Source of the DNA: a virus
Lineage: Duplodnaviria; Heunggongvirae; Uroviricota; Caudoviricetes
Strand: one strand, 5' to 3'
DNA length: 20,169 bases
IMG/VR virus record: IMGVR_UViG_2695420632_000003
Span: 1-20,169 of that record
The position numbers and the translations under genes were made by a program. The notes below the pieces were generated by a model. That model saw only the letters and a program-made list of their open reading frames with translations. It made no database searches and was not told the origin of the DNA. Of this stretch, positions 4,219 to 20,169 are shown one piece after another. Positions within the stretch are counted from its first letter, which is position 1. Each line of letters starts with the position of its first letter.

Positions 4219-4574
4219 GCGAGATTAATTATCAGGAAGGGCATGAAAAGGCAGGGCAGGCAAAACCAGTGGCATGGCGATATCGCTACGTGAAAAAAGG
4301 CGTTACAGACTTTCAGGGGAAGCAGTGGGTTGGTGACTGGAAATATGTACCGACAAAAGAGGATTGCAACGACAGACCGAACTATGAAATTCAGGCGTTA
4401 TTCACTGCCCCGCCTGTGCCACTGACACCAGAAGGATTGATTAAAGCAGTGCGTTTCTATGAACAGGTAAAGCGTGAGAATCCGCCAGTCGAAACCGGAG
4501 CATGGAAAGACGCTGTTGACTGGGTGCTCAAAGAGGCTTGCCAGTCTGTAAACATTGGCATCAAAGGAGAGTGA
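4215..4574 (+). CDS. Hypothetical phage protein
   Basis: 119-aa ORF in the coupled gene chain; ends ...GIKGE followed by the repeated junction AAAGGAGAGTGA. Confidence 0.5.
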   Translation: MSEINYQEGHEKAGQAKPVAWRYRYVKKGVTDFQGKQWVGDWKYVPTKEDCNDRPNYEIQALFTAPPVPLTPEGLIKAVRFYEQVKRENPPVETGAWKDAVDWVLKEACQSVNIGIKGE

Positions 4575-4576
4575 GA

Positions 4577-5068
4577 ATGCAAATTTCACCGGTTACTCTT
4601 CGTGTTGCGAAGGCGTTTATATCCAGACATCACCGACACAATAAACCCCCGGTGGGGCATAAATTCAGCATTGGTCTGAGAAATGATGCCGGAGAATTGA
4701 TAGGTGTGGCGACAGCCGGTAGACCTGTTGCACGACATTTGGACGATGGATTAACGCTTGAAGTAAATCGCACATGTACCACAGGAGAACGCAACGCTAA
4801 CAGCGCGCTTTATGGTGCTGTCTGGCGGGCAGCAAAGGCTATGGGTTATCAACGTTGTATTACGTACACCCAGGCAGATGAATCAGGAGCATCTCTCCGC
4901 GCAGCTGGTTTTGTTCGTGTGAAAGAGCTTCCTCCAAGAAAAAGCTGGGCGGAATCAAGCGTCGCCCTGCGGAGTAAACGCGATCCGGTCGGAAACGGTG
5001 GTGTTCCTCGTGTGCTCTGGGAAATCAGGAGAATGAGTACCACTGGCATTCGCATCAAAGGAGAGTGA
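4577..5068 (+). CDS. Hypothetical phage protein; possible acyltransferase-like fold (weak inference)
   Basis: ATG 4577 with AAAGGAGAG SD (ORF track frame extends to 4538). 163 aa; bracketed by identical 17-bp junction sequences (4558-4574 and 5052-5068). Fold assignment is only an impression from the sequence pattern and is not supported by a canonical GNAT motif. Confidence 0.5.
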   Translation: MQISPVTLRVAKAFISRHHRHNKPPVGHKFSIGLRNDAGELIGVATAGRPVARHLDDGLTLEVNRTCTTGERNANSALYGAVWRAAKAMGYQRCITYTQADESGASLRAAGFVRVKELPPRKSWAESSVALRSKRDPVGNGGVPRVLWEIRRMSTTGIRIKGE

Positions 5069-6326: not shown

Positions 6327-6537
6327 AAACGGTTTGCGGGAAAAGGAGAGTTAAGTAGAATTGCAGCGGGTGCTTGAGGCTATCTGTCTCAGGCATGAAC
6401 ACCAAAAGGCAGATAGAGAAAAGCCCCAGTTAACATTACGCGTCCGGCAAGACGCTTAACATTAATCTGAGGCCATATCTATGCTCTACACACGTAGGTT
6501 AGCCTCTTACGTGCCGAAAGGCAAGGAGAAGCAGGCT

Positions 6538-6693
6538 ATGAAGCAGCAAAAGGCGATGCTAATCGCCCTGATCGTCATCTGTTTAACCGTCATTGTGACG
6601 GCACTGGTAACGAGGAAAGACCTCTGCGAGGTACGAATCCGAACCGGCCAGACGGAGGTCGCTGTCTTCACAGCTTACGAACCTGAGGAGTAA
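6538..6693 (+). CDS. hok: Hok/Gef family type I toxin (HokD/RelF-like, 51 aa)
   Basis: Translation MKQQKAMLIALIVICLTVIVTALVTRKDLCEVRIRTGQTEVAVFTAYEPEE is a Hok-family membrane toxin as I recall it; SD AAGGAGA upstream; an in-frame upstream extension (6481) occupies the mok-like position; intrinsic terminator follows. Confidence 0.85.
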   Translation: MKQQKAMLIALIVICLTVIVTALVTRKDLCEVRIRTGQTEVAVFTAYEPEE

Positions 6694-9475: not shown

Positions 9476-9498
9476 CCCCGCCGCCTGGCGGGTTTTTT
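9476..9498 (+). terminator. Intrinsic terminator (candidate tR')
   Basis: CCCGCC-GCCT-GGCGGG hairpin followed by TTTTTT. Confidence 0.55.
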
Positions 9499-9620
9499 AT
9501 GACTGAAATCGCGTCAGTACAGTAAACGCGCTGGTGGCGGTGAATACCTGTCTTTCAGCTTGCTGGCTTTTTCGACAAGAGTTATTGGTGTGTCACGTTA
9601 ACCGGAAAAGGGAAAAAGAC

Positions 9621-9818
9621 ATGCTAAAACAGCAGGATATGACAGAAACCGCCAGAGTGGTGTTTAATGAATTAAGCGTTAACGACCCGGCGACAGTCGG
9701 GGAGATTGCGCAGAATACTTACCTTTCACGCGAACGCTGCCAGTTAATACTGACCCAGCTGGTTATGGCGGGTCTGGCAGACTATCAGTTCGGTTGTTAC
9801 AGACGCCTTCCGCAGTGA
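9621..9818 (+). CDS. Small hypothetical protein (65 aa), possible winged-helix DNA-binding
   Basis: ATG 9621 with AAGGGA SD (ORF track frame opens at 9534); translation MLKQQDMTETARVVFNELSVNDPATVGEIAQNTYLSRERCQLILTQLVMAGLADYQFGCYRRLPQ. Confidence 0.4.
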   Translation: MLKQQDMTETARVVFNELSVNDPATVGEIAQNTYLSRERCQLILTQLVMAGLADYQFGCYRRLPQ

Positions 9819-9968
9819 AGGCTTTTTTATTTGTGGTAAATGGGCGGCTGGTGGGTGTTAGGGGCACCCACCAGCCATCTGCTCATGCGTTGGGTTCACA
9901 AGCACACCTCAGGCCCACTGCTTTGCGCAAAAGCAGAATGAGCCTATCAGAGACAGGCTTAATGATCC

Positions 9969-11018
9969 ATGCTTAATACTGTAAAAATATCCAGTTGTGA
10001 GTTAATCAACGCCGACTGCCTGGAATTTATCCGGTCGTTACCCGAAAATTCTGTTGACCTGATAGTCACGGACCCGCCGTACTTTAAAGTGAAGCCTGAG
10101 GGCTGGGATAACCAGTGGAAGGGCGACGATGATTACCTGAAGTGGCTGGACCAGTGTCTGGCGCAGTTCTGGCGGGTGCTGAAACCTGTCGGAAGTCTTT
10201 ACCTGTTCTGTGGTCATCGCCTGGCATCTGATATCGAAATCATGATGCGTGAACGCTTCAGTGTGCTGAACCATATTATCTGGGCGAAGCCGTCCGGACG
10301 CTGGAACGGATGCAACAAGGAAAGCCTGCGGGCGTATTTCCCCGCCACAGAGCGCATTCTGTTCGCGGAACATTATCAGGGGCCGTATCGTCCGAAAGAT
10401 GCCGGGTATGCGGCGAAGGGCAGTGCACTGAAACAGCATGTGATGGCCCCGCTGATTTCTTACTTTCGTGATGCGCGCGCGGCCCTGGGGATAACGGCAA
10501 AACAGATTGCAGATGCCACAGGAAAGAAAAACATGGTGTCGCACTGGTTCAGTGCCAGTCAGTGGCAGCTACCGAACGAAAGCGATTATCTGAAATTACA
10601 GTCGCTGTTTGCCCGGGTGGCAGAAGAGAAACATCAGCGCGGTGAACTGGAAAAGCCCCACCACCAGCTGGTGGATACGTATACGTCACTGAACCGGCAG
10701 TATGTGGAGCTGCAGAGTGAATATAAGCATCTGCGGCGGTATTTTGGTGTGACGGCGCAGGTGCCGTACACGGATGTGTGGACACATAAACCGGTGCAGT
10801 TCTATCCCGGGAAACATCCGTGCGAAAAACCGGCAGAAATGCTGCAGCAGATAATCAGCGCAAGCAGTCGTCCGGGAGACCAGGTTGCAGATTTTTTTAT
10901 GGGCTCAGGTTCAACGGTAAAAGCGGCACTGGCGCTCGGGCGTCGTGCGATTGGCGTTGAACTGGAGACCGGACGTTTTGAGCAGACAGTCAGGGAAGTT
11001 CAGGATTTAATCGTTTGA
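9969..11018 (+). CDS. DNA methyltransferase, beta-class amino-MTase (N6-adenine or N4-cytosine), apparently orphan
   Basis: Catalytic DPPY motif near the N-terminus (LIVTDPPYF) and SAM-binding FxGxG near the C-terminus (DFFMGSGST): motif order IV then I. No adjacent restriction endonuclease candidate. Confidence 0.8.
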   Translation: MLNTVKISSCELINADCLEFIRSLPENSVDLIVTDPPYFKVKPEGWDNQWKGDDDYLKWLDQCLAQFWRVLKPVGSLYLFCGHRLASDIEIMMRERFSVLNHIIWAKPSGRWNGCNKESLRAYFPATERILFAEHYQGPYRPKDAGYAAKGSALKQHVMAPLISYFRDARAALGITAKQIADATGKKNMVSHWFSASQWQLPNESDYLKLQSLFARVAEEKHQRGELEKPHHQLVDTYTSLNRQYVELQSEYKHLRRYFGVTAQVPYTDVWTHKPVQFYPGKHPCEKPAEMLQQIISASSRPGDQVADFFMGSGSTVKAALALGRRAIGVELETGRFEQTVREVQDLIV

Positions 11019-11067: not shown

Positions 11068-11143
11068 GGCCCTTTAGCTCAGTGGTGAGAGCGAGCGACT
11101 CATAATCGCCAGGTCGCTGGTTCAAATCCAGCAAGGGCCACCA
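11068..11143 (+). tRNA. ileZ: tRNA with CAT anticodon, ileX/ileZ-like (tRNA-Ile2, lysidine type) rather than tRNA-Met
   Basis: 76 nt, cloverleaf folded by hand: acceptor GGCCCTT/AAGGGCC, anticodon loop CTCATAA, T-loop TTCAAAT, encoded CCA; close to E. coli ileX as I recall it. Confidence 0.8.
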
Positions 11144-11150
11144 TCACATA

Positions 11151-11227
11151 CCGCCATTAGCTCATCGGGATAGAGCGCCAGCCTTCGAAGCTGGCTGCGC
11201 GGGGTTCAAGTCCCCGATGGCGGTCCA
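11151..11227 (+). tRNA. argN: tRNA-Arg (anticodon TCG)
   Basis: 77 nt; acceptor CCGCCAT/ATGGCGG, D-stem GCTC/GAGC, anticodon loop CTTCGAA, T-arm CGGGG-TTCAAGT-CCCCG, encoded CCA. Confidence 0.75.
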
Positions 11228-11240
11228 TTATCTGCATCAT

Positions 11241-11317
11241 GCGTTGTTAGCTCAGCCGGACAGAGCAATTGCCTTCTAAGCAATCGGTCACTGGTTCGAA
11301 TCCAGTACAGCGCGCCA
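11241..11317 (+). tRNA. argO: tRNA-Arg (anticodon TCT, decodes AGA/AGG)
   Basis: 77 nt; acceptor GCGTTGT/ACAGCGC, anticodon loop CTTCTAA, T-arm ACTGG-TTCGAAT-CCAGT, encoded CCA. Confidence 0.8.
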
Positions 11318-11781: not shown

Positions 11782-12172
11782 ATACATATCTGGATTATCA
11801 CCGGTTACGGTAAAAAGTGATTGCTTACTGTTTTTGTGAATGGCATTGCAGCAGCCGGATAATGTCAGTGCTGGCTGACGGTGTGCTGGTGGCGGGTGTG
11901 GTGGTTGCTGCTTTCCCGTTGCTGAAAAAGAAAACGCCAGACTGTTAGCCGGGTATCAGTTAGCGGGAGAAATTTTTAAATACTTCACAATTCAGGCGGT
12001 TGACTGTTGTCTGGTTTGCGGGGAGTTTGTTAAAAGAAACTGGCATGGTGAATCCCCCTGTGCGGAGGGGCAATCAGCGAGTAGGTATATGGGATAATCG
12101 CGGATTCAGGTGCTGGTACTGAATTCACCGGGAGGCACCCGGCACCATGCAATGGCACATAGCGCCACTCTC

Positions 12173-12200
12173 CAGCCCCTCTCCGGAGGGGCTGTTTATA
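12173..12200 (+). terminator. Strong intrinsic terminator (+ strand) inside the cargo segment
   Basis: 9-bp GC-rich stem CAGCCCCTC / GAGGGGCTG with UCCG tetraloop, followed by TTTATATTGATTTT. Confidence 0.6.
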
Positions 12201-12228
12201 TTGATTTTGTCAGATGTGAGTAAACTCC

Positions 12229-12564
12229 TTATGGACTTTGTTGTTTTAGCCCATAAGGACATATTTGCAGAGTGCAACGGTTATTAAAGCATTCATTCAA
12301 TACGTTATCTGTATTTGTAGGGCATTCCTGGCTGTTTTTGATTAAATTCCAGAATGTTTTATTGAATGGTACTACGTTGTAAATGGTTACAGGCAGCACT
12401 TTGTTATTGAGCATGATGCCTGTGTGAGTCAGTGTAAATATACTTTCAGGAGGTAAGAAAGCATCCGATTGATACCAGATTATTAATTTTATTTTACTCC
12501 ATATGACTGAAAAAGATATTCCGCATGATGGCTGGATAACTGTATCAATCACAATCCACTTCAT
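12229..12564 (-). CDS. Uncharacterized Cys-rich 111-aa cargo ORF, antisense to the phage late transcript
   Basis: Long ORF in ~35% GC (stop-rich) DNA; AAGGAA SD 5 nt before ATG 12564; sigma70-like promoter on the minus strand around 12610-12650 (TTTACA ... TATACT). Confidence 0.45.
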
Positions 12565-12809: not shown

Positions 12810-14678
12810 ATGGTGGAAAGAACCATGGCATTTAAACACTATGATGTTGTCAGGGCGGCGTCGCCGTCAGATCTTGCGGAAAAGCTGACACATAAACTGA
12901 AAGAGGGCTGGCAGCCGTTTGGTAGTCCGGTGGCCATAACCCCTTATACCCTGATGCAGGCGATTGCAGCAGAAGGTGATGTGGTCGTCAGTGGTGCAAC
13001 TGAGCCGGAGTGGTACTACGTCATCGTACTGGCCGGGCAGTCCAATGCCATGGCTTACGGTGAAGGGCTTCCGCTTCCGGATTCATACGATGCGCCCCAT
13101 CCGCGCATTAAGCAACTGGCCCGTCGTAACACAGTGACTCCCGGTGGTGAAGTATGCGTATTTAACGACATCATTCCTGCTGACCATTGTCTGCATGATG
13201 TTCAGGATATGAGTACGATTAACCATCCCCGGGCTGACCTGAGCAAAGGGCAGTACGGCTGTGTCGGCCAGGGCTTACATATTGCCAAAAAACTGCTTCC
13301 GTATATCCCTAATAATGCGGGGATCCTGCTGGTACCATGCTGTCGTGGTGGTTCGGCATTCACCCAGGGCACGGAGGGGACATTCAGCGAGTCCACGGGG
13401 GCCAGTCAGGATTCGGCTCGCTGGGGAGTGGGTAAGCCGTTATATCAGGATCTGCTTTTCCGCACGAAGGCAGCATTGCAGAAAAACCCGAAAAACGTTT
13501 TGCTGGCGATATGCTGGATGCAGGGGGAATTCGATATGACGAATGCCAGTTACGCCCAGCAGCCAGCAGCATTTCTTGCAATGGTACAGCAGTTCCGTGC
13601 TGACCTTGCCGGGCTGGCAGCGCAGTGTCACGGTGGAAGTCCGGCATCAGTCCCCTGGATTTGTGGCGACACGACATACGCGTGGAAACAAGAACACGGT
13701 ACGCAATATGAAGTGGTATATGGTGCATATAAAGGTAAAGAATCCCAGCAGATTTATTTTGTTCCCTTTATGACCGATGGTAGCGGAGTTAATACACCGA
13801 CAAACAACCCGTCAGAAGATCCTGATATTGCCGGGTCTGGTTATTACGGTTCGGCATCCCGAACGAACAAAAACTGGGTATCATCAAATCGCCCGACGCA
13901 TTTCAGCTCATGGGCGCGTCGTGGCATTATTCCCGATCGTATGGCAACTGCTATTCTGAACGTAGCCGGGCGCACCTCAGCCTTCATCAGTGGTAAGGCA
14001 CCGGAAATCAAACCCTCGCCCGGCGGCGACACGCCATCGGGTCCGTCTGCAGATACGTCCGTTCGCACAATCTCCCTGCTGCCGACAGCCGGAGAGGCTG
14101 CTGCGCAGGGCTGGACCATCACCGGCGGCAGTGTTGCGCTGGAAGATGGTGTGTTTAAGGTTACCAAGCAGAGCAATAAAACCTGGTCCCTGATGCATCC
14201 GGTGGATGACGCAGTCTCCCTGCTGACACGGGGTGGCAGACTGAGCTGTAAGTTTCGACTGTCAGGCGCACTGACCAACAACCAGTTCGGTCTGGGAATT
14301 TATCTGTATACCGATGTAGCGTTACCTGACGTCGTGGCGATGACCGGGACTGGTAACCCGTTCCTGATGTCGTTCTTCACCCAGACCACAGACGGCAAAC
14401 TGAATCTGATGCATCACAAGAAAGCCGGAAACACAAAGTTGGGCGAGTTCGGGAATTACAGTAACGACTGGCAGACGCTGGAGCTGGTGTTCACCGCCGG
14501 CAGTGCCACGGTTACTCCGAAACTGAATGGAGTGGCTGGCCCGGCATTCCAGGTTATAAAAGACAGTCTGACACTGGGACTGAATGCGCTGACGCTGACG
14601 GATATTACCAAAAATGCAGCGTATGGCGTTGAGATAGAAAGTCTGGTGCTGGAGATAAATGCACCGGCATCATCATAA
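12810..14678 (+). CDS. nanS: NanS-p-like sialate 9-O-acetylesterase (SGNH/SASA hydrolase domain, N-terminal DUF1737-like region)
   Basis: GQSN motif (VLAGQSNAMAYGEG) of SGNH esterases; size and location (downstream of the tRNA triplet, upstream of S) match the yjhS/nanS-like gene of Stx prophages. True start may be ATG 12825 (MAFKHYDV..., SD GGTGGA). Confidence 0.75.
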   Translation: MVERTMAFKHYDVVRAASPSDLAEKLTHKLKEGWQPFGSPVAITPYTLMQAIAAEGDVVVSGATEPEWYYVIVLAGQSNAMAYGEGLPLPDSYDAPHPRIKQLARRNTVTPGGEVCVFNDIIPADHCLHDVQDMSTINHPRADLSKGQYGCVGQGLHIAKKLLPYIPNNAGILLVPCCRGGSAFTQGTEGTFSESTGASQDSARWGVGKPLYQDLLFRTKAALQKNPKNVLLAICWMQGEFDMTNASYAQQPAAFLAMVQQFRADLAGLAAQCHGGSPASVPWICGDTTYAWKQEHGTQYEVVYGAYKGKESQQIYFVPFMTDGSGVNTPTNNPSEDPDIAGSGYYGSASRTNKNWVSSNRPTHFSSWARRGIIPDRMATAILNVAGRTSAFISGKAPEIKPSPGGDTPSGPSADTSVRTISLLPTAGEAAAQGWTITGGSVALEDGVFKVTKQSNKTWSLMHPVDDAVSLLTRGGRLSCKFRLSGALTNNQFGLGIYLYTDVALPDVVAMTGTGNPFLMSFFTQTTDGKLNLMHHKKAGNTKLGEFGNYSNDWQTLELVFTAGSATVTPKLNGVAGPAFQVIKDSLTLGLNALTLTDITKNAAYGVEIESLVLEINAPASS

Positions 14679-14828: not shown

Positions 14829-15044
14829 ATGTACCAGATGGAAAAAATCACAACAGGTGTGTCATACACCACGTCAGCGGTGGGAACGGGCTACTGGTTC
14901 CTGCAGTTGCTGGACAGGGTTTCCCCGTCTCAGTGGGCGGCAATAGGCGTGCTGGGGAGTCTGCTGTTTGGGCTGCTGACATATCTGACTAACCTGTATT
15001 TCAAAATCAGAGAGGACCGGCGTAAGGCGGCGCGGGGAGAGTAA
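14829..15044 (+). CDS. S: Class II holin, S21-like pinholin (71 aa) with dual-start motif
   Basis: Translation [71 protein letters not shown]: two TM segments, Met1/Met4 dual start, charged C-terminus; partnered with a SAR endolysin downstream. The ORF track extension to 14751 runs through the terminator and is rejected. Confidence 0.8.
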
Positions 15045-15048
15045 AGCG

Positions 15049-15855
15049 ATGAAGAAAAAATACGAACTGGTTGTTAAAGGGATAAATAATTACCCGGATA
15101 AGATTACTGTTACTGTGGTACTGGAAATTGGTGGGTATCCGTCACTGTTGTTGCCAAATGTGGCGATTAGTCTTGACCGTACTGAAGGTGCCACGCTGGA
15201 GTTTTACGAAGCTGAGGCGAAAAAGCAGGCGAAGCAGTTTTTCATGGATGTTGCTGCCGGGTTATGTGAAGGGAACGAACCGTTGCCGGAAAAGCGCCCC
15301 ATAATTTTAGAGGCGCAGGATGTGTTGATAACCTACAAAGGAAAGCTACCGGGAAGAATTACTGGTTCTCTGAAGATGCCGCCGTCAACACTGCGGTCAG
15401 AAAAAGAGGCGTCTTGTCTGCAGTCTGAGTACTCCATTACGGTTAAAAGTGCCGGAGAGGAAGGAAATAAACGTTATTTTATTGCGTCTGCACCTGATAA
15501 AGATCAGGAATGGGAGTGTAACCGGCCATCCTTTGTTGTATACGGAGATGGCGGGAAAATAACCATCTCAGAAAATGGGAAATTAACACCGCCATCGCAC
15601 CAGCATAGTGAGGCGCTCATTGAATTTGCCATTGATTACCTGAAGAACAATAAAAAGCAGGGGCTGATGAAGCGCATTGGTCGTTGCATGGGATATCTGC
15701 AGGTAGCAGCTGAGATTGAAATGATGGCCAGTGGTGCTGACAATGATGCAGTTGTGCTGGAGGCTCTTCTGCGTGATTTTGATAATACGCCCTTTAAGAA
15801 AGCACCTGTTGACTGGATGCAGCCGGGGATGACTTATCTGAAAGGGCGTATATAA
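15049..15855 (+). CDS. Uncharacterized 268-aa soluble protein inserted between holin and endolysin
   Basis: GGGGAGAG SD, starts 4 nt after the holin stop (late-operon co-transcription); no TM segments or recognisable catalytic motifs. Confidence 0.5.
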   Translation: MKKKYELVVKGINNYPDKITVTVVLEIGGYPSLLLPNVAISLDRTEGATLEFYEAEAKKQAKQFFMDVAAGLCEGNEPLPEKRPIILEAQDVLITYKGKLPGRITGSLKMPPSTLRSEKEASCLQSEYSITVKSAGEEGNKRYFIASAPDKDQEWECNRPSFVVYGDGGKITISENGKLTPPSHQHSEALIEFAIDYLKNNKKQGLMKRIGRCMGYLQVAAEIEMMASGADNDAVVLEALLRDFDNTPFKKAPVDWMQPGMTYLKGRI

Positions 15856-15864
15856 GGTGGCTCG

Positions 15865-16179
15865 TTATCTGTTGCTGGATAATCGACTGAAGATGCGTTC
15901 TTTTTGTGTTTTTGCGTAATGATTGTCCCACTCACAATCAAGGTAGCTTAATTCTTCATTCAACCAGTTATTTATATTGGTCTTAATACGCATAAGCATG
16001 GGCTGTGTTAATGCTCTGGCGATAATGCCGAGAGTCACAGGTGTGAGATGTCCATACGGCTCAGCCTGAATGGATTTTACTGCATCGTGTTCTTGTGGGA
16101 GGAGTAAGAGGCACTCTGATTTTACCCGCTCATTTATGGCTTGCAGGCATAAATCATAATTATGTTGATCGTTATGCAT
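15865..16179 (-). CDS. Uncharacterized 104-aa protein, convergent with the 268-aa ORF
   Basis: GAGGA SD 6 nt upstream of ATG 16179 on the minus strand; its stop lies 10 nt from the stop of 15049-15855. Confidence 0.45.
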   Translation of the reverse strand: MHNDQHNYDLCLQAINERVKSECLLLLPQEHDAVKSIQAEPYGHLTPVTLGIIARALTQPMLMRIKTNINNWLNEELSYLDCEWDNHYAKTQKERIFSRLSSNR

Positions 16180-16307: not shown

Positions 16308-16745
16308 ATGAACACCAAAATCAAATATGGCCTGTCGGCTGCCGTTCTGGCGTTGATTGCCATCGGTGCGCCTGCGCCTGATATTCTCGACCAGTTTCTG
16401 GATGAAAAAGAAGGTAACCACACAACGGCATACCGTGATGGTGCGGGTATCTGGACCATCTGCCGCGGTGCCACAATGGTGGATGGTAAACCTGTTATTC
16501 CGGGCATGAAACTGTCGAAGGAAAAATGCGACCAGGTTAATGCCATTGAACGGGATAAGGCGCTGGCATGGGTGGAGCGCAATATTAAAGTTCCACTGAC
16601 CGAACCACAGAAAGCGGGTATAGCGTCATTCTGTCCCTATAACATTGGCCCCGGTAAGTGTTTCCCGTCGACGTTTTATAAGCGGCTGAATGCTGGTGAC
16701 CGCAGGGGAGCGTGTGAGGCGATTCGCTGGTGGATTAAGGACGGT
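16308..16745 (+). pseudogene. R: SAR endolysin R (R21-like lysozyme), N-terminal fragment interrupted by an IS21-family element
   Basis: N-terminal weakly hydrophobic Gly/Ala-rich SAR domain (GLSAAVLALIAIGAPA) and E-x8-D-x5-T catalytic triad (EGNHTTAYRDGAGIWT); reading frame broken after ...WWIKDG by the IS left end. Confidence 0.8.
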
Positions 16746-16938
16746 TGCGTATTTTCATGAAAGGAGATCACTCAATAACTTCCATCGAGATCGGGTAATA
16801 ACATTTGAACAGATCGCTGAATAACATCGATGGAGATCACTTTTGACTCATTTTGTTATTCAGTGATCTCCATCAATGTTATTGGAACTTCACAGGTGTG
16901 TTGATCTGTATCTTTTGCCATTCCGGTAAAGGATACCT

Positions 16939-18480
16939 ATGCCAACAGTTCCAATTTCTATGAGAAAACTTAAAGAAATTCTTAGGCTTAAATACGGTGT
17001 TGGACTCAGCCATCGACAAATTGGTCGTAGTCTTGCAATCTCCCCTTCCGTTGTATCCAGATATGCTAATCGGGCGGCTCAACTTGGCATAAAGCAGTGG
17101 CCCTTACCTACAGGATGGGATGATACAAAACTAAAACATGCGTTCCTTCAGACCCAGGTTAAGATGAAGAAGCACTCTCTGCCTGACTGGGCTACAGTAC
17201 ACCGGGAACTGCGTAATAAATGCGTGACGCTGCAGCTACTCTGGGAAGAATACTGTGAGCGTAATCCAGGCGGTTTTTACAGCTATAACCATTACTGCCG
17301 GATGTACCGTGAATGGCTCAAAACCACTTCACCATCAATGCGTCAGGTACATAAAGCTGGCGAAAAACTTTTCGTTGATTACTGTGGACCTACCGTTGGC
17401 GTTACCGACCCTGAGACCGGAGAAATAAGAACTGCTCAGGTCATCGTAGCTGTTCTCGGGGCATCAAGTTACACATGGGCAGAGGCCACCTGGTCTCAGC
17501 AGCTTGAAGACTGGGTGATGAGTCATGTTCGCTGCTTCCAGTGGTTGGGTGGCGTTCCTGAACTTGTTGTTCCGGACAATCTGAAAAGCGCCACATCCAG
17601 GGCATGTAAGTATGATCCTGACGTTAACCCTACCTACCAGCAGATGCTTGAGCATTATAATGTCGCAGTTTTGCCTGCGCGGCCACGTAAACCGAAAGAT
17701 AAAGCCAAAGCTGAAGTTGGCGTTCAGGTTGTTGAACGCTGGATCATGGCCCGAATCAGGCATGAGATCTTCTACAGCCTTGCATCGCTTAATCAGCGCA
17801 TTCGGGAGTTGCTGGAAAGACTGAATAACAAAATAATGCAGAAGTTGGGTTATTCACGTGCAGAACTCTTCATCCAGCTTGATAAACCCGCACTGAAGCC
17901 TCTTCCTGAAGCCAGTTACAGTTACACCCTGGTGAAGAAAGTCAGAGTTCATGCCGATTACCACGTGGAAATCGACAAACATTACTACTCGGTTCCATGT
18001 TCGCTGTTAGGCCAGCAACTGGAAGCATGGATCTCCGGAGAACTGGTAAGACTCTTCAATCAGGGGCAGGAGGTTGCTGTGCACCCGCGCAAGCGTACTT
18101 ATGGCTACAGTACCCGCAACGAGCACATGCCTGAAGCTCATCGACAGCATGCCACCTGGACGCCAGAGCGTCTTCTGGAATGGGCGGGGCACATAGGCAG
18201 TGAAACTCATAGTTATGTGCTTCATATACTGAACTCTCGTCCACATCCGGAACAAAGCTATCGCTTCTGCCTTGGACTCCTGAACCTTCATAAAAAATAC
18301 AGTAAAGCCAGACTTAATGCAGCATGTGCAAGAGCTCTGAAAACAAAGGTATGGCGTCTGTCAGGTATTAAATCGATCCTGGAAAAAGGTCTGGATAAAC
18401 AACCTGTTCAGGATCCAAAACCAGATCTGTTATCCACGATGGAACACGAAAACGTACGCGGCAGTGAGTATTACCACTGA
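16939..18480 (+). CDS. istA: IS21-family transposase IstA
   Basis: 513 aa with N-terminal HTH (LSHRQIGRSLAISPSVVSRY); followed 11 nt later by the IstB ATPase gene; AAAGGA SD. Confidence 0.85.
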   Translation: MPTVPISMRKLKEILRLKYGVGLSHRQIGRSLAISPSVVSRYANRAAQLGIKQWPLPTGWDDTKLKHAFLQTQVKMKKHSLPDWATVHRELRNKCVTLQLLWEEYCERNPGGFYSYNHYCRMYREWLKTTSPSMRQVHKAGEKLFVDYCGPTVGVTDPETGEIRTAQVIVAVLGASSYTWAEATWSQQLEDWVMSHVRCFQWLGGVPELVVPDNLKSATSRACKYDPDVNPTYQQMLEHYNVAVLPARPRKPKDKAKAEVGVQVVERWIMARIRHEIFYSLASLNQRIRELLERLNNKIMQKLGYSRAELFIQLDKPALKPLPEASYSYTLVKKVRVHADYHVEIDKHYYSVPCSLLGQQLEAWISGELVRLFNQGQEVAVHPRKRTYGYSTRNEHMPEAHRQHATWTPERLLEWAGHIGSETHSYVLHILNSRPHPEQSYRFCLGLLNLHKKYSKARLNAACARALKTKVWRLSGIKSILEKGLDKQPVQDPKPDLLSTMEHENVRGSEYYH

Positions 18481-18491
18481 TACGGGATCCA

Positions 18492-19241
18492 ATGATGAAT
18501 CATCTTTACGAACAACTGACCGCACTTAAACTCACCGGCTTCCGTGATGCGCTTAAAAAGCAACTTGCTCAGCCGGGCACATACCAGGAGCTGGGCTTCG
18601 AAGAACGCCTGTCATTACTGACAGCAGAAGAACTAACCTGCCGTGAAAACAGGAAGGCAGAGCGTCTGATCAAACATGCACGGTTCAGACTTAATGCTGA
18701 GTTATCAAAGCTGGATTATCGTAACAATAGAGGGCTGGACAGGGCCCTCATCCGTTCACTCAGTCAGGGAAACTGGTTAACCCTGAAACAAAATATTTTA
18801 CTGACCGGGGCCACCGGCAGCGGTAAAACGTTCCTGGCATGTGCACTTGGTCATAATGCCTGCCGACAGGGATACAAGGTCTACTATTATCGCCTTAAAG
18901 CGCTGATGGAACAGTGCTATCAGGGGCATGCTGATGGAAGATACAGCAAACTTTTGACCAGGCTGAATAATAGCGATCTGCTGCTTCTGGATGACTGGGG
19001 GCTGGAACCTCTCTCATCAGAACAGCGTAGCGACCTGCTGGAAATAGTGGATCTGATGTACCAACGAGGCTCAATCATCGTAGTGAGCCAGTTGCCGGTG
19101 GAAAACTGGTACAAAATGATCGGAGACTCCACACATGCGGATGCCATCCTAGATCGACTGGTTCATGGCAGTATCAAGATCGAACTTAAAGGAGAATCAA
19201 TGCGGAAAATACAATCTCCGTTGACCGAAGGAGATCAGTGA
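18492..19241 (+). CDS. istB: IS21-family helper ATPase IstB
   Basis: Walker A GATGSGKTFLA and Walker B LLLLDDWG; ~250 aa, typical IstB. Confidence 0.85.
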   Translation: MMNHLYEQLTALKLTGFRDALKKQLAQPGTYQELGFEERLSLLTAEELTCRENRKAERLIKHARFRLNAELSKLDYRNNRGLDRALIRSLSQGNWLTLKQNILLTGATGSGKTFLACALGHNACRQGYKVYYYRLKALMEQCYQGHADGRYSKLLTRLNNSDLLLLDDWGLEPLSSEQRSDLLEIVDLMYQRGSIIVVSQLPVENWYKMIGDSTHADAILDRLVHGSIKIELKGESMRKIQSPLTEGDQ

Positions 19242-19326
19242 AGGTAATTTAAAAACGGTTCTGTGAAAGTGACACGAACCGATCTCCATCGATGTTACTC
19301 ACCGATCTCCTTCACGGTAATACGCA

Positions 19327-19427
19327 ACGGTGGCAGGGACTGCCGTATTCGCTCAAATAACTGTTACGGTCAGGTATCCCGTCGTGACCAGGAGAGCGCG
19401 CTGGCGTGCTGGGGAATCGACAGATAA
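19327..19427 (+). pseudogene. R: SAR endolysin R, C-terminal fragment downstream of the IS
   Basis: Removing the IS plus one TSD copy restores ...IKDG-GRDCRIRSNNCYGQVSRRDQESALACWGIDR-stop in frame. Confidence 0.75.
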
Positions 19428-19521
19428 GCAGAATATTTTGCTAATAAATGACGTTGGCCAAGGCGGACGGATAACACGAAATCCTGCGAACTGGCAAAAT
19501 GTAAGTGAATAAAAGTAAAAA

Positions 19522-19556
19522 CCCCGTTTGTTGGCAGCAAGCGGGGTTTTGTTTTT
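19522..19556 (+). terminator. Intrinsic terminator downstream of the endolysin
   Basis: Stem CCCCGTTTG / CAAGCGGGG (one G-U pair), loop TTGGCAG, followed by TTTTGTTTTT. Confidence 0.55.
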
Positions 19557-19719: not shown

Positions 19720-19851
19720 ATGTCAGACAAACTCATAACGCCGGCAAAGGTCCTGTGTGTGATTGTCGGTATTTCATTTTCACTAATGCTGGTTGCTCTT
19801 TTTCTGTCCCTCGCCTGGGTGATGTTGTCTTCGTCGGGGCTGCTGGGGTGA
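19720..19851 (+). CDS. Small membrane peptide (43 aa)
   Basis: AAGGGG SD 6 nt upstream of ATG; translation MSDKLITPAKVLCVIVGISFSLMLVALFLSLAWVMLSSSGLLG (one TM segment). Confidence 0.4.
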   Translation: MSDKLITPAKVLCVIVGISFSLMLVALFLSLAWVMLSSSGLLG

Positions 19852-19970
19852 CAGTGACTGATGACATCAGCAGAGCGCTGGCTTTTGCTATTAAGTGGGT
19901 GGCTGTTGGTATTGCTGTGTCTCCGATGCTGTATGGGCTGGCAAAACTGGTCATTGCGCTGAAATCGTGA
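19848..19970 (+). CDS. Small membrane peptide (~40 aa), paralogous to the following ORF
   Basis: GTG start overlapping the preceding stop (GTGA); ...DDISRALAFAIKWVAVGIAVSPMLYGLAKLVIALKS resembles ORF 19982-20068. Confidence 0.35.
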   Translation: MTVTDDISRALAFAIKWVAVGIAVSPMLYGLAKLVIALKS

Positions 19971-19981
19971 ACTTTAAAAAG

Positions 19982-20068
19982 ATGAGTGCTGAACTTATTC
20001 GGGCAATGGCATTTGCCATTCGTATTGTGGCCATTGCTGTTCTGGTCTGGGCAATCCGTTGGTGGTGA
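19982..20068 (+). CDS. Small membrane peptide (28 aa)
   Basis: MSAELIRAMAFAIRIVAIAVLVWAIRWW; stop 1 nt before the Rz start; weak SD. Confidence 0.3.
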   Translation: MSAELIRAMAFAIRIVAIAVLVWAIRWW

Positions 20069-20069
20069 T

Positions 20070-20169
20070 ATGAACCGTGTTCTGTGTGTGGTGATTATTG
20101 TCCTGCTGGTAGCCTGTGGTGTGCTTAGTCTGGGGCTGAATCATTACCGTGATAACGCCATAACCTACA
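20070..20169 (+). CDS. Rz: Rz i-spanin, 5' part (continues beyond the window)
   Basis: MNRVLCVVIIVLLVACGVLSLGLNHYRDNAITY... closely parallels the lambda Rz N-terminus (TM segment then NHYRDNAITY) as I recall it. Confidence 0.8.
   Translation, partial: MNRVLCVVIIVLLVACGVLSLGLNHYRDNAITY

Follow-up and report, generated by a model that had tools for sequence, protein, structure and literature searches.

The insertion sequence ISEc12 has been described in tssM of the ST131 clade C strain EC958, where it is flanked by a 5-bp duplication, ACTGC (PMC10711316). There the element splits a chromosomal secretion-system gene in two, and the disrupted allele has been inherited by descendants and is fixed in a large clade. 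The ISEc12 copy analysed here is like the one in tssM in its istA-istB layout, its TG...CA ends and its 5-bp duplication (PMC10711316), and also in the outcome, a divided gene that has been passed on to descendants. In contrast, its target is a prophage lysis gene and the resulting allele is rare (10 contigs).

For the interrupted gene, the described system is phage 21 R with the S21 pinholin (PDB 3HDE/3HDF). The two loci share a GH24 domain with a catalytic triad at the same residue numbers (35/44/50), a weakly hydrophobic Ala/Gly-rich N-terminus and an upstream P21-type dual-start holin. However, the relationship to R21 is distant (phmmer 62.6 bits, E = 3e-16) and the protein restored by excision of the IS is 12 residues longer; moreover, here two extra genes lie between holin and endolysin, and the endolysin is interrupted. 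The restored protein is much closer to the R proteins of Stx phages (95-97%), and it can be aligned from end to end with 177-aa R proteins found in Stx-converting and mEp460-type lambdoid phages.

The third precedent is provided by the defective prophages of O157 Sakai, for example Sp4 with its disrupted nu1 gene, where, as here, an otherwise well-preserved lambdoid prophage carries an IS in a single essential late gene. The functional outcome for the IS-disrupted Sakai prophages depends on complementation by sibling prophages (PMC2669165). In Sakai, the lysis genes are reported to be complete in all lambdoid prophages; here it is the lysis gene that has been struck, and by an IS of a different family from that in nu1.

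The DNA analysed here (the window, 20,169 nucleotides) is one entire contig of a draft assembly, CYEG01000053.1. An earlier note, made from the sequence alone, had placed an insertion in an endolysin gene at positions 16741-19331; this interval corresponds to the IS plus both copies of its target duplication, and every element that had been described was located there. The results suggest that, very probably, the R (endolysin) gene of an E. coli prophage of lambdoid, non-Stx type was hit by transposition of a single ISEc12, an instance of ordinary mutational decay. Events of this type are an ordinary, already known and well-understood form of prophage decay. The features of the locus are as follows.

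14829-15044, + strand: pinholin of S21 type, 71 aa, intact (PF04971 'Bacteriophage P21 holin S', 111.2 bits)
15049-15855, + strand: 268-aa DUF1327 protein, an accessory gene between holin and endolysin (PF07041, 147.2 bits)
15865-16179, - strand: 104-aa hypothetical ORF, annotated as a hypothetical protein in locus L001
16308-16745, + strand: endolysin 5' fragment, codons 1-146, with SAR-like N-terminus and triad E35/D44/T50
16741-16745: left copy of the duplication ACGGT
16746-19326, + strand: ISEc12 (IS21 family), 2581 bp, oriented like the endolysin
16746-16795, + strand: left terminal inverted repeat region, with GGAGATC-containing subterminal repeats
16939-18480, + strand: istA, 513-aa transposase with rve/DDE core (PF00665, PF22483, NF033546)
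18492-19241, + strand: istB, AAA+ helper ATPase, 249 aa (PF01695, NF038214)
19277-19326, - strand: right terminal inverted repeat region, with two GATCTCC-containing repeats
19327-19331: right copy of the duplication ACGGT
19332-19427, + strand: endolysin 3' fragment, codons 147-177 and stop, with the conserved C-terminal G-x3-RR-x2-E segment
19518-19550, + strand: terminator-like hairpin downstream of the endolysin, present in intact relatives too
20070-20169, + strand: start of an Rz-type i-spanin gene, cut by the contig end

The element had been assigned to the IS21 family, and this could be refined to ISEc12: over its whole length (1-2581) it has 100% nucleotide identity to copies that RefSeq annotates under this name. 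It starts TGCGTATT and ends AATACGCA, giving the TG...CA ends with multiple subterminal repeats that are found in the IS21 family. On re-inspection the terminal inverted repeats were present and imperfect, with 38 matches in 51 columns of a gapped alignment and the first 8 nt perfect. GGAGATC-containing repeats begin at 16763 and 16832 and occur in inverted form at 16865, 19281 and 19304; these subterminal repeats are presumed to be IstA binding sites. The repeat pair 16820-16841/16862-16883 gives a 22-nt hairpin.

The coding content follows the IS21 layout, with istA and then istB placed consecutively on the same strand. IstA scored 310.5 bits against NF033546, the NCBIfam equivalog for IS21 transposases (cut-off 160), and IstB scored 227.5 bits against PF01695 and 270 bits against NF038214, the NCBIfam equivalog for IstB (cut-off 200). 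Walker A (GATGSGKT) and Walker B (LLLLDD) motifs can be read from the istB translation. RefSeq starts istB at 18495, giving 248 aa. An ISEc12 copy covering at least 80% of the element is present in 1366 complete E. coli genomes, many of which carry several (median 3 places per genome having it). All six sampled copies were base-identical to the IS in the window, and 100% identity to it was recorded for copies in over 1,300 complete E. coli genomes. With both reading frames intact and a sequence identical to widespread copies, we infer that this copy is active in transposition.

ACGGT is found on both flanks of the element, as expected of a simple insertion with a clean 5-bp duplication, which the earlier note had proposed. 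IS21-family elements generate target duplications of 4-8 bp, and the steps by which they insert are established for the family. At this site, the IstA DDE transposase and the IstB AAA+ ATPase, which acts in target selection and preparation, would have joined both ends of the IS to target strands cut with a 5-bp stagger, and gap repair after end joining would have produced the ACGGT duplication. Among six sampled ISEc12 copies the duplication was 5 bp in three, 7 bp in one and lacking in two. The duplications seen (ACGGT, CCTGC, GCGTT, CCCGC and GTCAGGG), taken with ACTGC from the literature, have no common target motif.

In silico excision, joining 16308-16745 to 19332-19427, yields an ORF of 177 codons that is identical at 534/534 nt to a lysozyme gene annotated in E. 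coli 266917_2 (WP_001092910.1). Likewise, 15 complete genomes carry uninterrupted lysozyme genes that match the 600-bp excised junction at 100% identity, and the terminator-like hairpin at 19518-19550 falls inside this identical stretch. Joining the flanks thus restores an intact 177-codon lysozyme, as had been claimed, and the product is nucleotide-identical to a known gene. A 5-bp match between the flanks would arise by chance alone in about 1 in 1024 cases; because excision restores a known gene exactly, chance is excluded.

These observations also bear on whether the endolysin is split by one IS at all. The contig could be a chimera or a gap-filled scaffold that joins two unrelated IS junctions, a concern raised by its being the full contig of a draft assembly, by the frequent multi-copy state of ISEc12 in E. 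coli, and by a related contig (L002) in which an unrelated locus follows this IS. However, in a random chimera one would not expect the flanks to share a 5-bp duplication and, once joined, to reproduce an intact gene without a single nucleotide difference. Moreover, each junction was seen in independent assemblies. The left junction is present in L002-L009, and the right junction is found in contig JNQZ01000117.1, whose first base is base 1 of the IS and which is 100% identical through window position 20016. In strain 2-427-07_S4_C1 two contigs overlap over nearly the whole IS, one (L004) reaching window position 19267 and the other (L010) starting at 16746. An assembly chimera, which we regard as exceedingly improbable, was rejected on the shared duplication, the exact restoration of the gene and the independently assembled junctions. 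In the strain represented by L002, with its different right flank, the locus is either rearranged or misassembled.

As the earlier note had stated, the reading frame is cut after codon 146 (GGT, ending at 16745). The restored protein matches PF00959 (Phage_lysozyme) with 89.5 bits over profile positions 2-125 of 125. It aligns end to end with intact R21-like endolysins (residues 32-163 of the 165 in phage 21 R), and is 96.6% identical over residues 1-177 to R of the Stx2-converting phage 86. The catalytic motif of this enzyme class has been defined as E-X8-D/C-X5-T (PMC9239132), and an E-X8-D-X5-T triad is present from residue 35 (EGNHTTAYRDGAGIWT; E35, D44 and T50), with the corresponding residues of R21 in alignment. 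At the N-terminus, residues 7-24 (YGLSAAVLALIAIGAPAP) are SAR-like in composition, the only property assessed, with 9 of 18 being Gly, Ala or Ser plus two Pro, and Lys4 and Lys6 precede them. A pinholin partner is a further criterion for a SAR endolysin, and a P21-type holin lies upstream. The defining behaviour of such enzymes is tethering to the membrane, followed by release and activation once it is depolarised, and an assay for this has been described (PMC9239132). Sequence features therefore support identification of the interrupted gene as a putative R21-like SAR-type endolysin, a GH24 'true lysozyme'.

The interrupted ORF runs into the IS, where 146 native residues are followed by CVFS and a stop codon (16758-16760) to give a 150-aa product. 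On this protein the PF00959 match extends over profile positions 2-110 of 125. Because the last 15 of the 125 domain positions are missing, loss of activity is very likely, and the truncated product is most probably inactive or misfolded. It would keep the SAR-like N-terminus with Glu35, Asp44 and Thr50, and would end without the last 31 residues, which hold a conserved C-terminal segment of the lysozyme fold. Retention of all catalytic residues is a counterpoint to inactivity.

The same insertion allele was found on 10 contigs from at least eight draft assemblies, whereas the identical intact allele was present on about 998 contigs. None of the 5,426 complete E. coli genomes searched contained the insertion allele: with 600-800-bp queries for both junctions, coverage in any complete E. 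coli genome did not exceed about 53%. The exact 41-nt pattern of the left junction was also absent from GTDB species representatives and JGI metagenome contigs. Carriers differ by 0-6 substitutions outside a recombinant tract and three further substitutions in L007; the tract (window 9488-9973) lies upstream of the methyltransferase gene in L006 and L007, and the three substitutions are at 11155-11171. In L006 the insertion allele stands behind a different Q/replication module. Because the junction, and hence the CVFS tail, is identical in all carriers, the insertion is best read as having occurred once, in an ancestor, and as being carried today by few strains. An insertion hot spot, with independent insertions at one site, is unlikely: the flanks of the carriers are near-identical and ISEc12 duplications lack a common motif.

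The neighbouring genes appear undamaged, and no lesion other than the insertion was found in the window. The pinholin has the dual-start motif (MYQMEK, with Met1 at 14829 and Met4 at 14838), and the 71-aa gene is called in all carrier loci. The counterpart of the DUF1327 slot in relatives is annotated as a truncated 'YdfR family' pseudogene. The 104-aa ORF at 15865-16179 has no Pfam or NCBIfam match. At the end of the contig, the Rz-type gene start (MNRVLCVVIIVLLVACG...) has as its counterpart in L001 and L017 a 'lysis protein'. As claimed previously, the upstream cargo is intact: the accessory ORFs (methyltransferase, three tRNAs, an IraM-like gene, a SASA/NanS-p-type esterase and the holin) match those of an intact relative in length.

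The intact cargo had led the earlier note to see a domestication signature. A domesticated defective prophage is one that has lost autonomous lytic capacity, whose retained genes are under purifying selection and which has persisted for long by vertical inheritance. On the domestication reading, loss of lysis could have been selected, with the host keeping the prophage cargo (esterase, IraM-like anti-adaptor, methyltransferase, tRNAs and hok/sok) free of the cost of lytic release. Consistent with this, the upstream accessory ORFs are full length and equal in size across eight carrier loci as well as the intact relative, the insertion allele is common to at least eight assemblies, and it persisted through at least one modular recombination (L006). 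However, the pinholin is intact, such that induction should stay lethal; loss of the endolysin removes virion release rather than the cost to the cell. Furthermore, the expression of a lambdoid late-operon esterase, and probably also its release, depends on induction and lysis. The esterase here lies downstream of Q in the late region, and an endolysin mutation would hinder its release rather than help it.

The age and frequency of the allele also argue against domestication. Full (100%) identity, both of the IS to other copies and of the flanks to empty sites, points to a recent insertion; the window is free of other lesions; the allele is rare (on 10 contigs, with about 998 for the identical intact one, and in 0 of 5,426 complete genomes); and the carriers are separated by too few substitutions for dN/dS. 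With an intact pinholin, a rare allele and substitutions too few for an estimate of selection, the claimed signature was not borne out, and we consider domestication unlikely. A lone insertion in a gene otherwise unmutated, made by an IS that does not differ from active copies, has the look of neutral decay by recent transposition.

The description 'lysis-defective' is a reasonable one for this prophage taken alone, as judged over a 20-kb window that ends inside Rz, with the structural genes outside it. On induction, with its own endolysin lost and the pinholin intact, the prophage would depolarise and kill its host but leave the cell wall undegraded, and an endolysin from another resident prophage would be needed for lysis and virion release. 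The insertion could thus be real and the prophage nevertheless not be functionally lysis-defective, if a co-resident lambdoid endolysin complements in trans or if recombination with a paralogous R repairs the gene. Genomes with the identical intact allele hold a homologous lysozyme at 2-4 places each, which makes complementation in trans plausible, and in some genomes there are up to 12 such places. In addition, the breaks of this contig (20169) and of JNQZ01000117.1 (20016) both lie just upstream of or inside Rz, as would be expected if near-identical sequence is present elsewhere in the genome. In O157 Sakai, defective lambdoid prophages have been documented to complement one another (PMC2669165). 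However, complementation in trans requires co-induction in the same cell, and the second endolysin is a candidate only, our view of the source genome being limited to the 20-kb contig. We regard rescue by either route as less likely than not.

A more speculative proposal concerns the IS itself. ISEc12 is sense-oriented in a Q-antiterminated late operon, and no strong sense-strand terminator was found between the endolysin start and istA; induction may therefore drive read-through transcription of istA and istB, coupling a burst of IS transposition to SOS. With a sibling endolysin the IS-bearing genome could also be packaged, and the phage could then spread the IS. We consider this scenario very unlikely.

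In summary, the preferred reading of a single ISEc12 insertion into R has little significance beyond correct annotation. The 150-aa ORF deposited under the name 'membrane-associated lysozyme; Qin prophage' represents the 5' part of R::ISEc12 and is very probably not a functional gene. The two junction sequences may serve as a marker for the few E. coli strains that have this insertion in common, and the locus is a usable system for studying the effect of endolysin loss alone on the cost of induction. For prophage biology, it cleanly illustrates how the lysis module of a lambdoid prophage with accessory genes is eroded by an apparently active IS.

An IS21-family insertion that inactivates a SAR-type endolysin is a well-supported prediction from the window sequence. 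The window covers the part of a lambdoid prophage that runs from replication genes to lysis genes, laid out as follows.

Features of the window in order, with the two genes of the inserted element last
223-1200: helix-turn-helix (HTH_36) protein, in the replication-initiator position
After the HTH_36 gene: DnaC/IstB-like loader
4538-5068: 176-aa protein with a weak Mom-family match (PF25680, 22.7 bits, below the cut-off of 27.1)
6368-6693: hok/sok type I toxin-antitoxin (Rfam sok at 6368-6543, 117 bits; Hok-family ORF ending at 6693)
After hok/sok: DUF968 protein, RusA and Q antiterminator, in that order
After the Q antiterminator: DNA methyltransferase
11068-11317, downstream of the methyltransferase: three phage-borne tRNAs (CAT, Arg-TCG, Arg-TCT)
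12014-12564: sRNA STnc100 (full-length match, 132 bits) and an adjoining IraM-like gene
Minus strand, the adjoining gene: IraM-like anti-adaptor, 111 aa (NF007393, 162 bits)
12825-14678, between Q and holin: DUF1737-SASA-DUF6645 carbohydrate esterase (NanS-p type), 617 aa
14829-15044, upstream of the endolysin: holin of the phage 21 S family, 71 aa (PF04971)
3' part, in order: pinholin, DUF1327 protein, 104-aa antisense ORF, interrupted endolysin gene (R::ISEc12), small membrane ORFs, start of Rz
16939-18480, plus strand: istA-type transposase gene, 513 aa (Pfam rve integrase core and Mu-transposase C-terminal domain)
18492-19241, plus strand: istB-type gene, 249 aa (Pfam IstB_IS21)

The element is 2581 bp in size, from a left end at 16746 that reads TGCGTATTTTCATGAAAGGAGATC... 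to a right end at 19326 that reads ...GATCTCCTTCACGGTAATACGCA, and ACGGT stands directly before it (16741-16745) and again directly after it (19327-19331). The terminal inverted repeats are imperfect, with the first 8 nt perfect and 38 of 51 columns matching in a gapped alignment, and GGAGATC/GATCTCC motifs are reiterated within them at both ends; together these are the usual IS21-family pattern. Both genes lie on the same strand, and in NCBIfam their products exceed the equivalog cut-offs of two IS21 models, with 310.5 bits (cut-off 160) for the family transposase and 270 bits (cut-off 200) for the helper ATPase IstB. The length, imperfect repeats, 5-bp duplication and family that the earlier note had claimed were thus all recovered, the length exactly, and the sequence is that of ISEc12. 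A 22-nt inverted repeat (16820-16883; 95% complementary, 20-nt spacing) follows the left terminal repeats and precedes istA; it may have a regulatory role in the expression of istA or in external read-through.

In a megablast search of 5,426 complete E. coli genomes the element matched many records at 100% identity over positions 1-2581; the RefSeq annotation of the genes there is 'IS21-like element ISEc12 family' for both the transposase and the helper ATPase. Copies that cover 80% or more of the query are present in 1,366 of the genomes. All six copies examined with their flanks are base-for-base identical to that of the window. Their target duplications vary: 5 bp in three (CCTGC, GCGTT, CCCGC), 7 bp (GTCAGGG) at the copy in psiA of plasmid p1540-4 (L016, NZ_CP019055.1), and none at the remaining two (L014, L015), which suggests later rearrangement at those copies. 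Because 5 bp was found at three sampled copies and also at ISEc12 in tssM of the ST131 strain EC958, flanked by ACTGC (PMC10711316), the ACGGT duplication is typical for this element.

The lysozyme frame starts at 16308 and is undisturbed through codon 146 (GGT, last base 16745), after which it continues into the element for four codons (CVFS) and a stop. Joining 16308-16745 to 19332-19427 in silico produced a 177-codon ORF whose 534 nt match the annotated E. coli 266917_2 lysozyme gene (WP_001092910.1) at every position, so the predicted restoration of an intact lysozyme of about 177 codons held. Fifteen complete genomes carry a 600-bp excised junction (300 bp per side) at 100% identity and without interruption, and in every one the gene is annotated 'lysozyme'. 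The end-to-end alignment proposed in the earlier note was also run, and the failure that would have refuted its reading did not occur: residues 32-174 of the restored protein align to residues 32-163 of the 165 of phage 21 endolysin R (PDB 3HDE), including the C-terminal GG...G-x3-RR-x2-E...WG segment, and over its full length the protein is 96.6% identical to R of the Stx2-converting phage 86. With R of mEp460 and with R of several Stx1/Stx2 phages it shares about 95% identity. The Pfam lysozyme domain covers profile positions 2-125 of 125 in the restored protein (residues 33-167), and only 2-110 in the interrupted product. The sole product translatable from the native start therefore falls 31 residues short of the full 177, and the missing part takes in the last 15 profile positions; knowledge of T4-lysozyme-like folds and lambdoid lysis suggests that this fragment would be inactive.

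The restored endolysin carries E35-X8-D44-X5-T50, the 'true lysozyme' triad (PMC9239132). At its N-terminus two lysines precede YGLSAAVLALIAIGAPAP, in which every second residue on average is Gly, Ala or Ser, as would be expected of a signal-anchor-release (SAR) domain. The Met1/Met4 dual start of the PF04971 holin parallels S21 71/68. From the triad, the N-terminal composition and this holin, assignment of the pair as a SAR endolysin with a pinholin is well supported by sequence.

The window is an entire contig (CYEG01000053.1, 20,169 bp) of a draft assembly (GCA_001285925.2), and chimerism therefore has to be considered. Ten contigs, belonging to at least eight draft assemblies, encode exactly the 150-aa truncated product that marks the left junction, and three of the 10 continue through the element. 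The right junction occurs in an independent assembly, that of E. coli 2-427-07_S4_C1, where contig JNQZ01000117.1 begins exactly at base 1 of the element and is 100% identical to the window as far as 20016; it overlaps the left-junction contig of the same strain across nearly the whole element. The duplication, the perfect restoration and the junctions in independent assemblies rule out an assembly artefact for practical purposes.

The interrupted allele is rare. The 5,426 complete E. coli genomes contain neither junction, a 41-nt junction string was absent from GTDB species representatives and JGI metagenomes, and about 998 contigs have the identical intact 177-aa allele, compared with 10 that have the truncated one. 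Over up to 13 kb the carriers differ from the window by 0-6 substitutions, except in L006 and L007, which share a clustered divergent and evidently recombinant tract at 9488-9973, upstream of the methyltransferase gene; L007 has three additional substitutions at 11155-11171. In L006 (CYAI01000002.1, 1-3179) the tract marks the join of the interrupted late region to a different early module, with a DnaB-type helicase and a 126-aa PF06530 Q versus the 273-aa PF03589 Q. This arrangement reflects recombination of modules between lambdoid prophages on either side of the interrupted allele's late region. The simplest reading is a single ancestral insertion, inherited by a small strain group, followed by at least one modular exchange. 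Carrier L002 (CYFP01000052.1, 9138-15101) follows the window up to the final base of ISEc12, beyond which it enters an unrelated chromosomal locus (flank CCAGG; patatin, YjcZ and dynamin-like GTPase genes) in place of the endolysin 3' fragment. This second junction, found in four complete genomes, reflects either recombination between two copies of the element or a chimeric contig.

A non-Stx prophage of O104:H4 2011C-3493 shares this layout of the late region and has an intact lysozyme. Its methyltransferase, IraM, esterase and holin genes equal those of the window in length, and the claim that upstream cargo is intact is correct for ORF integrity. The esterase, full length as in O104:H4, sits where Stx phages carry stx. 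The CAT tRNA is read as Met by ARAGORN versus Ile in the annotation of relatives. At 15049-16179 the 268-aa DUF1327 protein and the opposite-strand 104-aa ORF separate holin from endolysin, whereas two relatives (L001, L017) hold only a truncated 'YdfR family' pseudogene there; this slot within the lysis cassette is therefore variable. Between endolysin and Rz (19720-20068), downstream of a strong terminator-like hairpin (19518-19550), the contig's gene calls include several tiny ORFs (43, 51 and 28 aa) that contain hydrophobic segments. Intact relatives conserve them.

While the earlier note was accurate in every detail of what it observed (coordinates, repeats, duplication, restoration), its reading of the insertion as a signature of prophage domestication over-reached and is not supported by the data in hand. 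From what is known of lambdoid lysis, the pinholin would still trigger, so that an induced cell would die without cell-wall degradation rather than be spared. Expression of late-region genes in lambdoid operons depends on induction, and the esterase, lying in that region, is likewise tied to it. The element and both flanks show zero divergence from other copies and uninserted sites, the allele is rare, and variation among carriers is too small to measure selection. Spanin genes downstream are probably still transcribed across the element, because late transcription is Q-antiterminated. A lysis-defective prophage is a fair inference from the sequence. Endolysin may also come from another prophage in the cell: genomes with the identical intact allele carry two to four homologous lysozyme loci each, and in O157 Sakai defective lambdoid prophages cross-complement, an IS in nu1 of Sp4 having failed to block packaging (PMC2669165).

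ISEc12 and the intact target allele are already known sequences, and IS insertions that break E. coli prophage genes are common and well described. The limited persistence of this allele, in at least eight assemblies and on one recombinant backbone, is compatible with neutrality.
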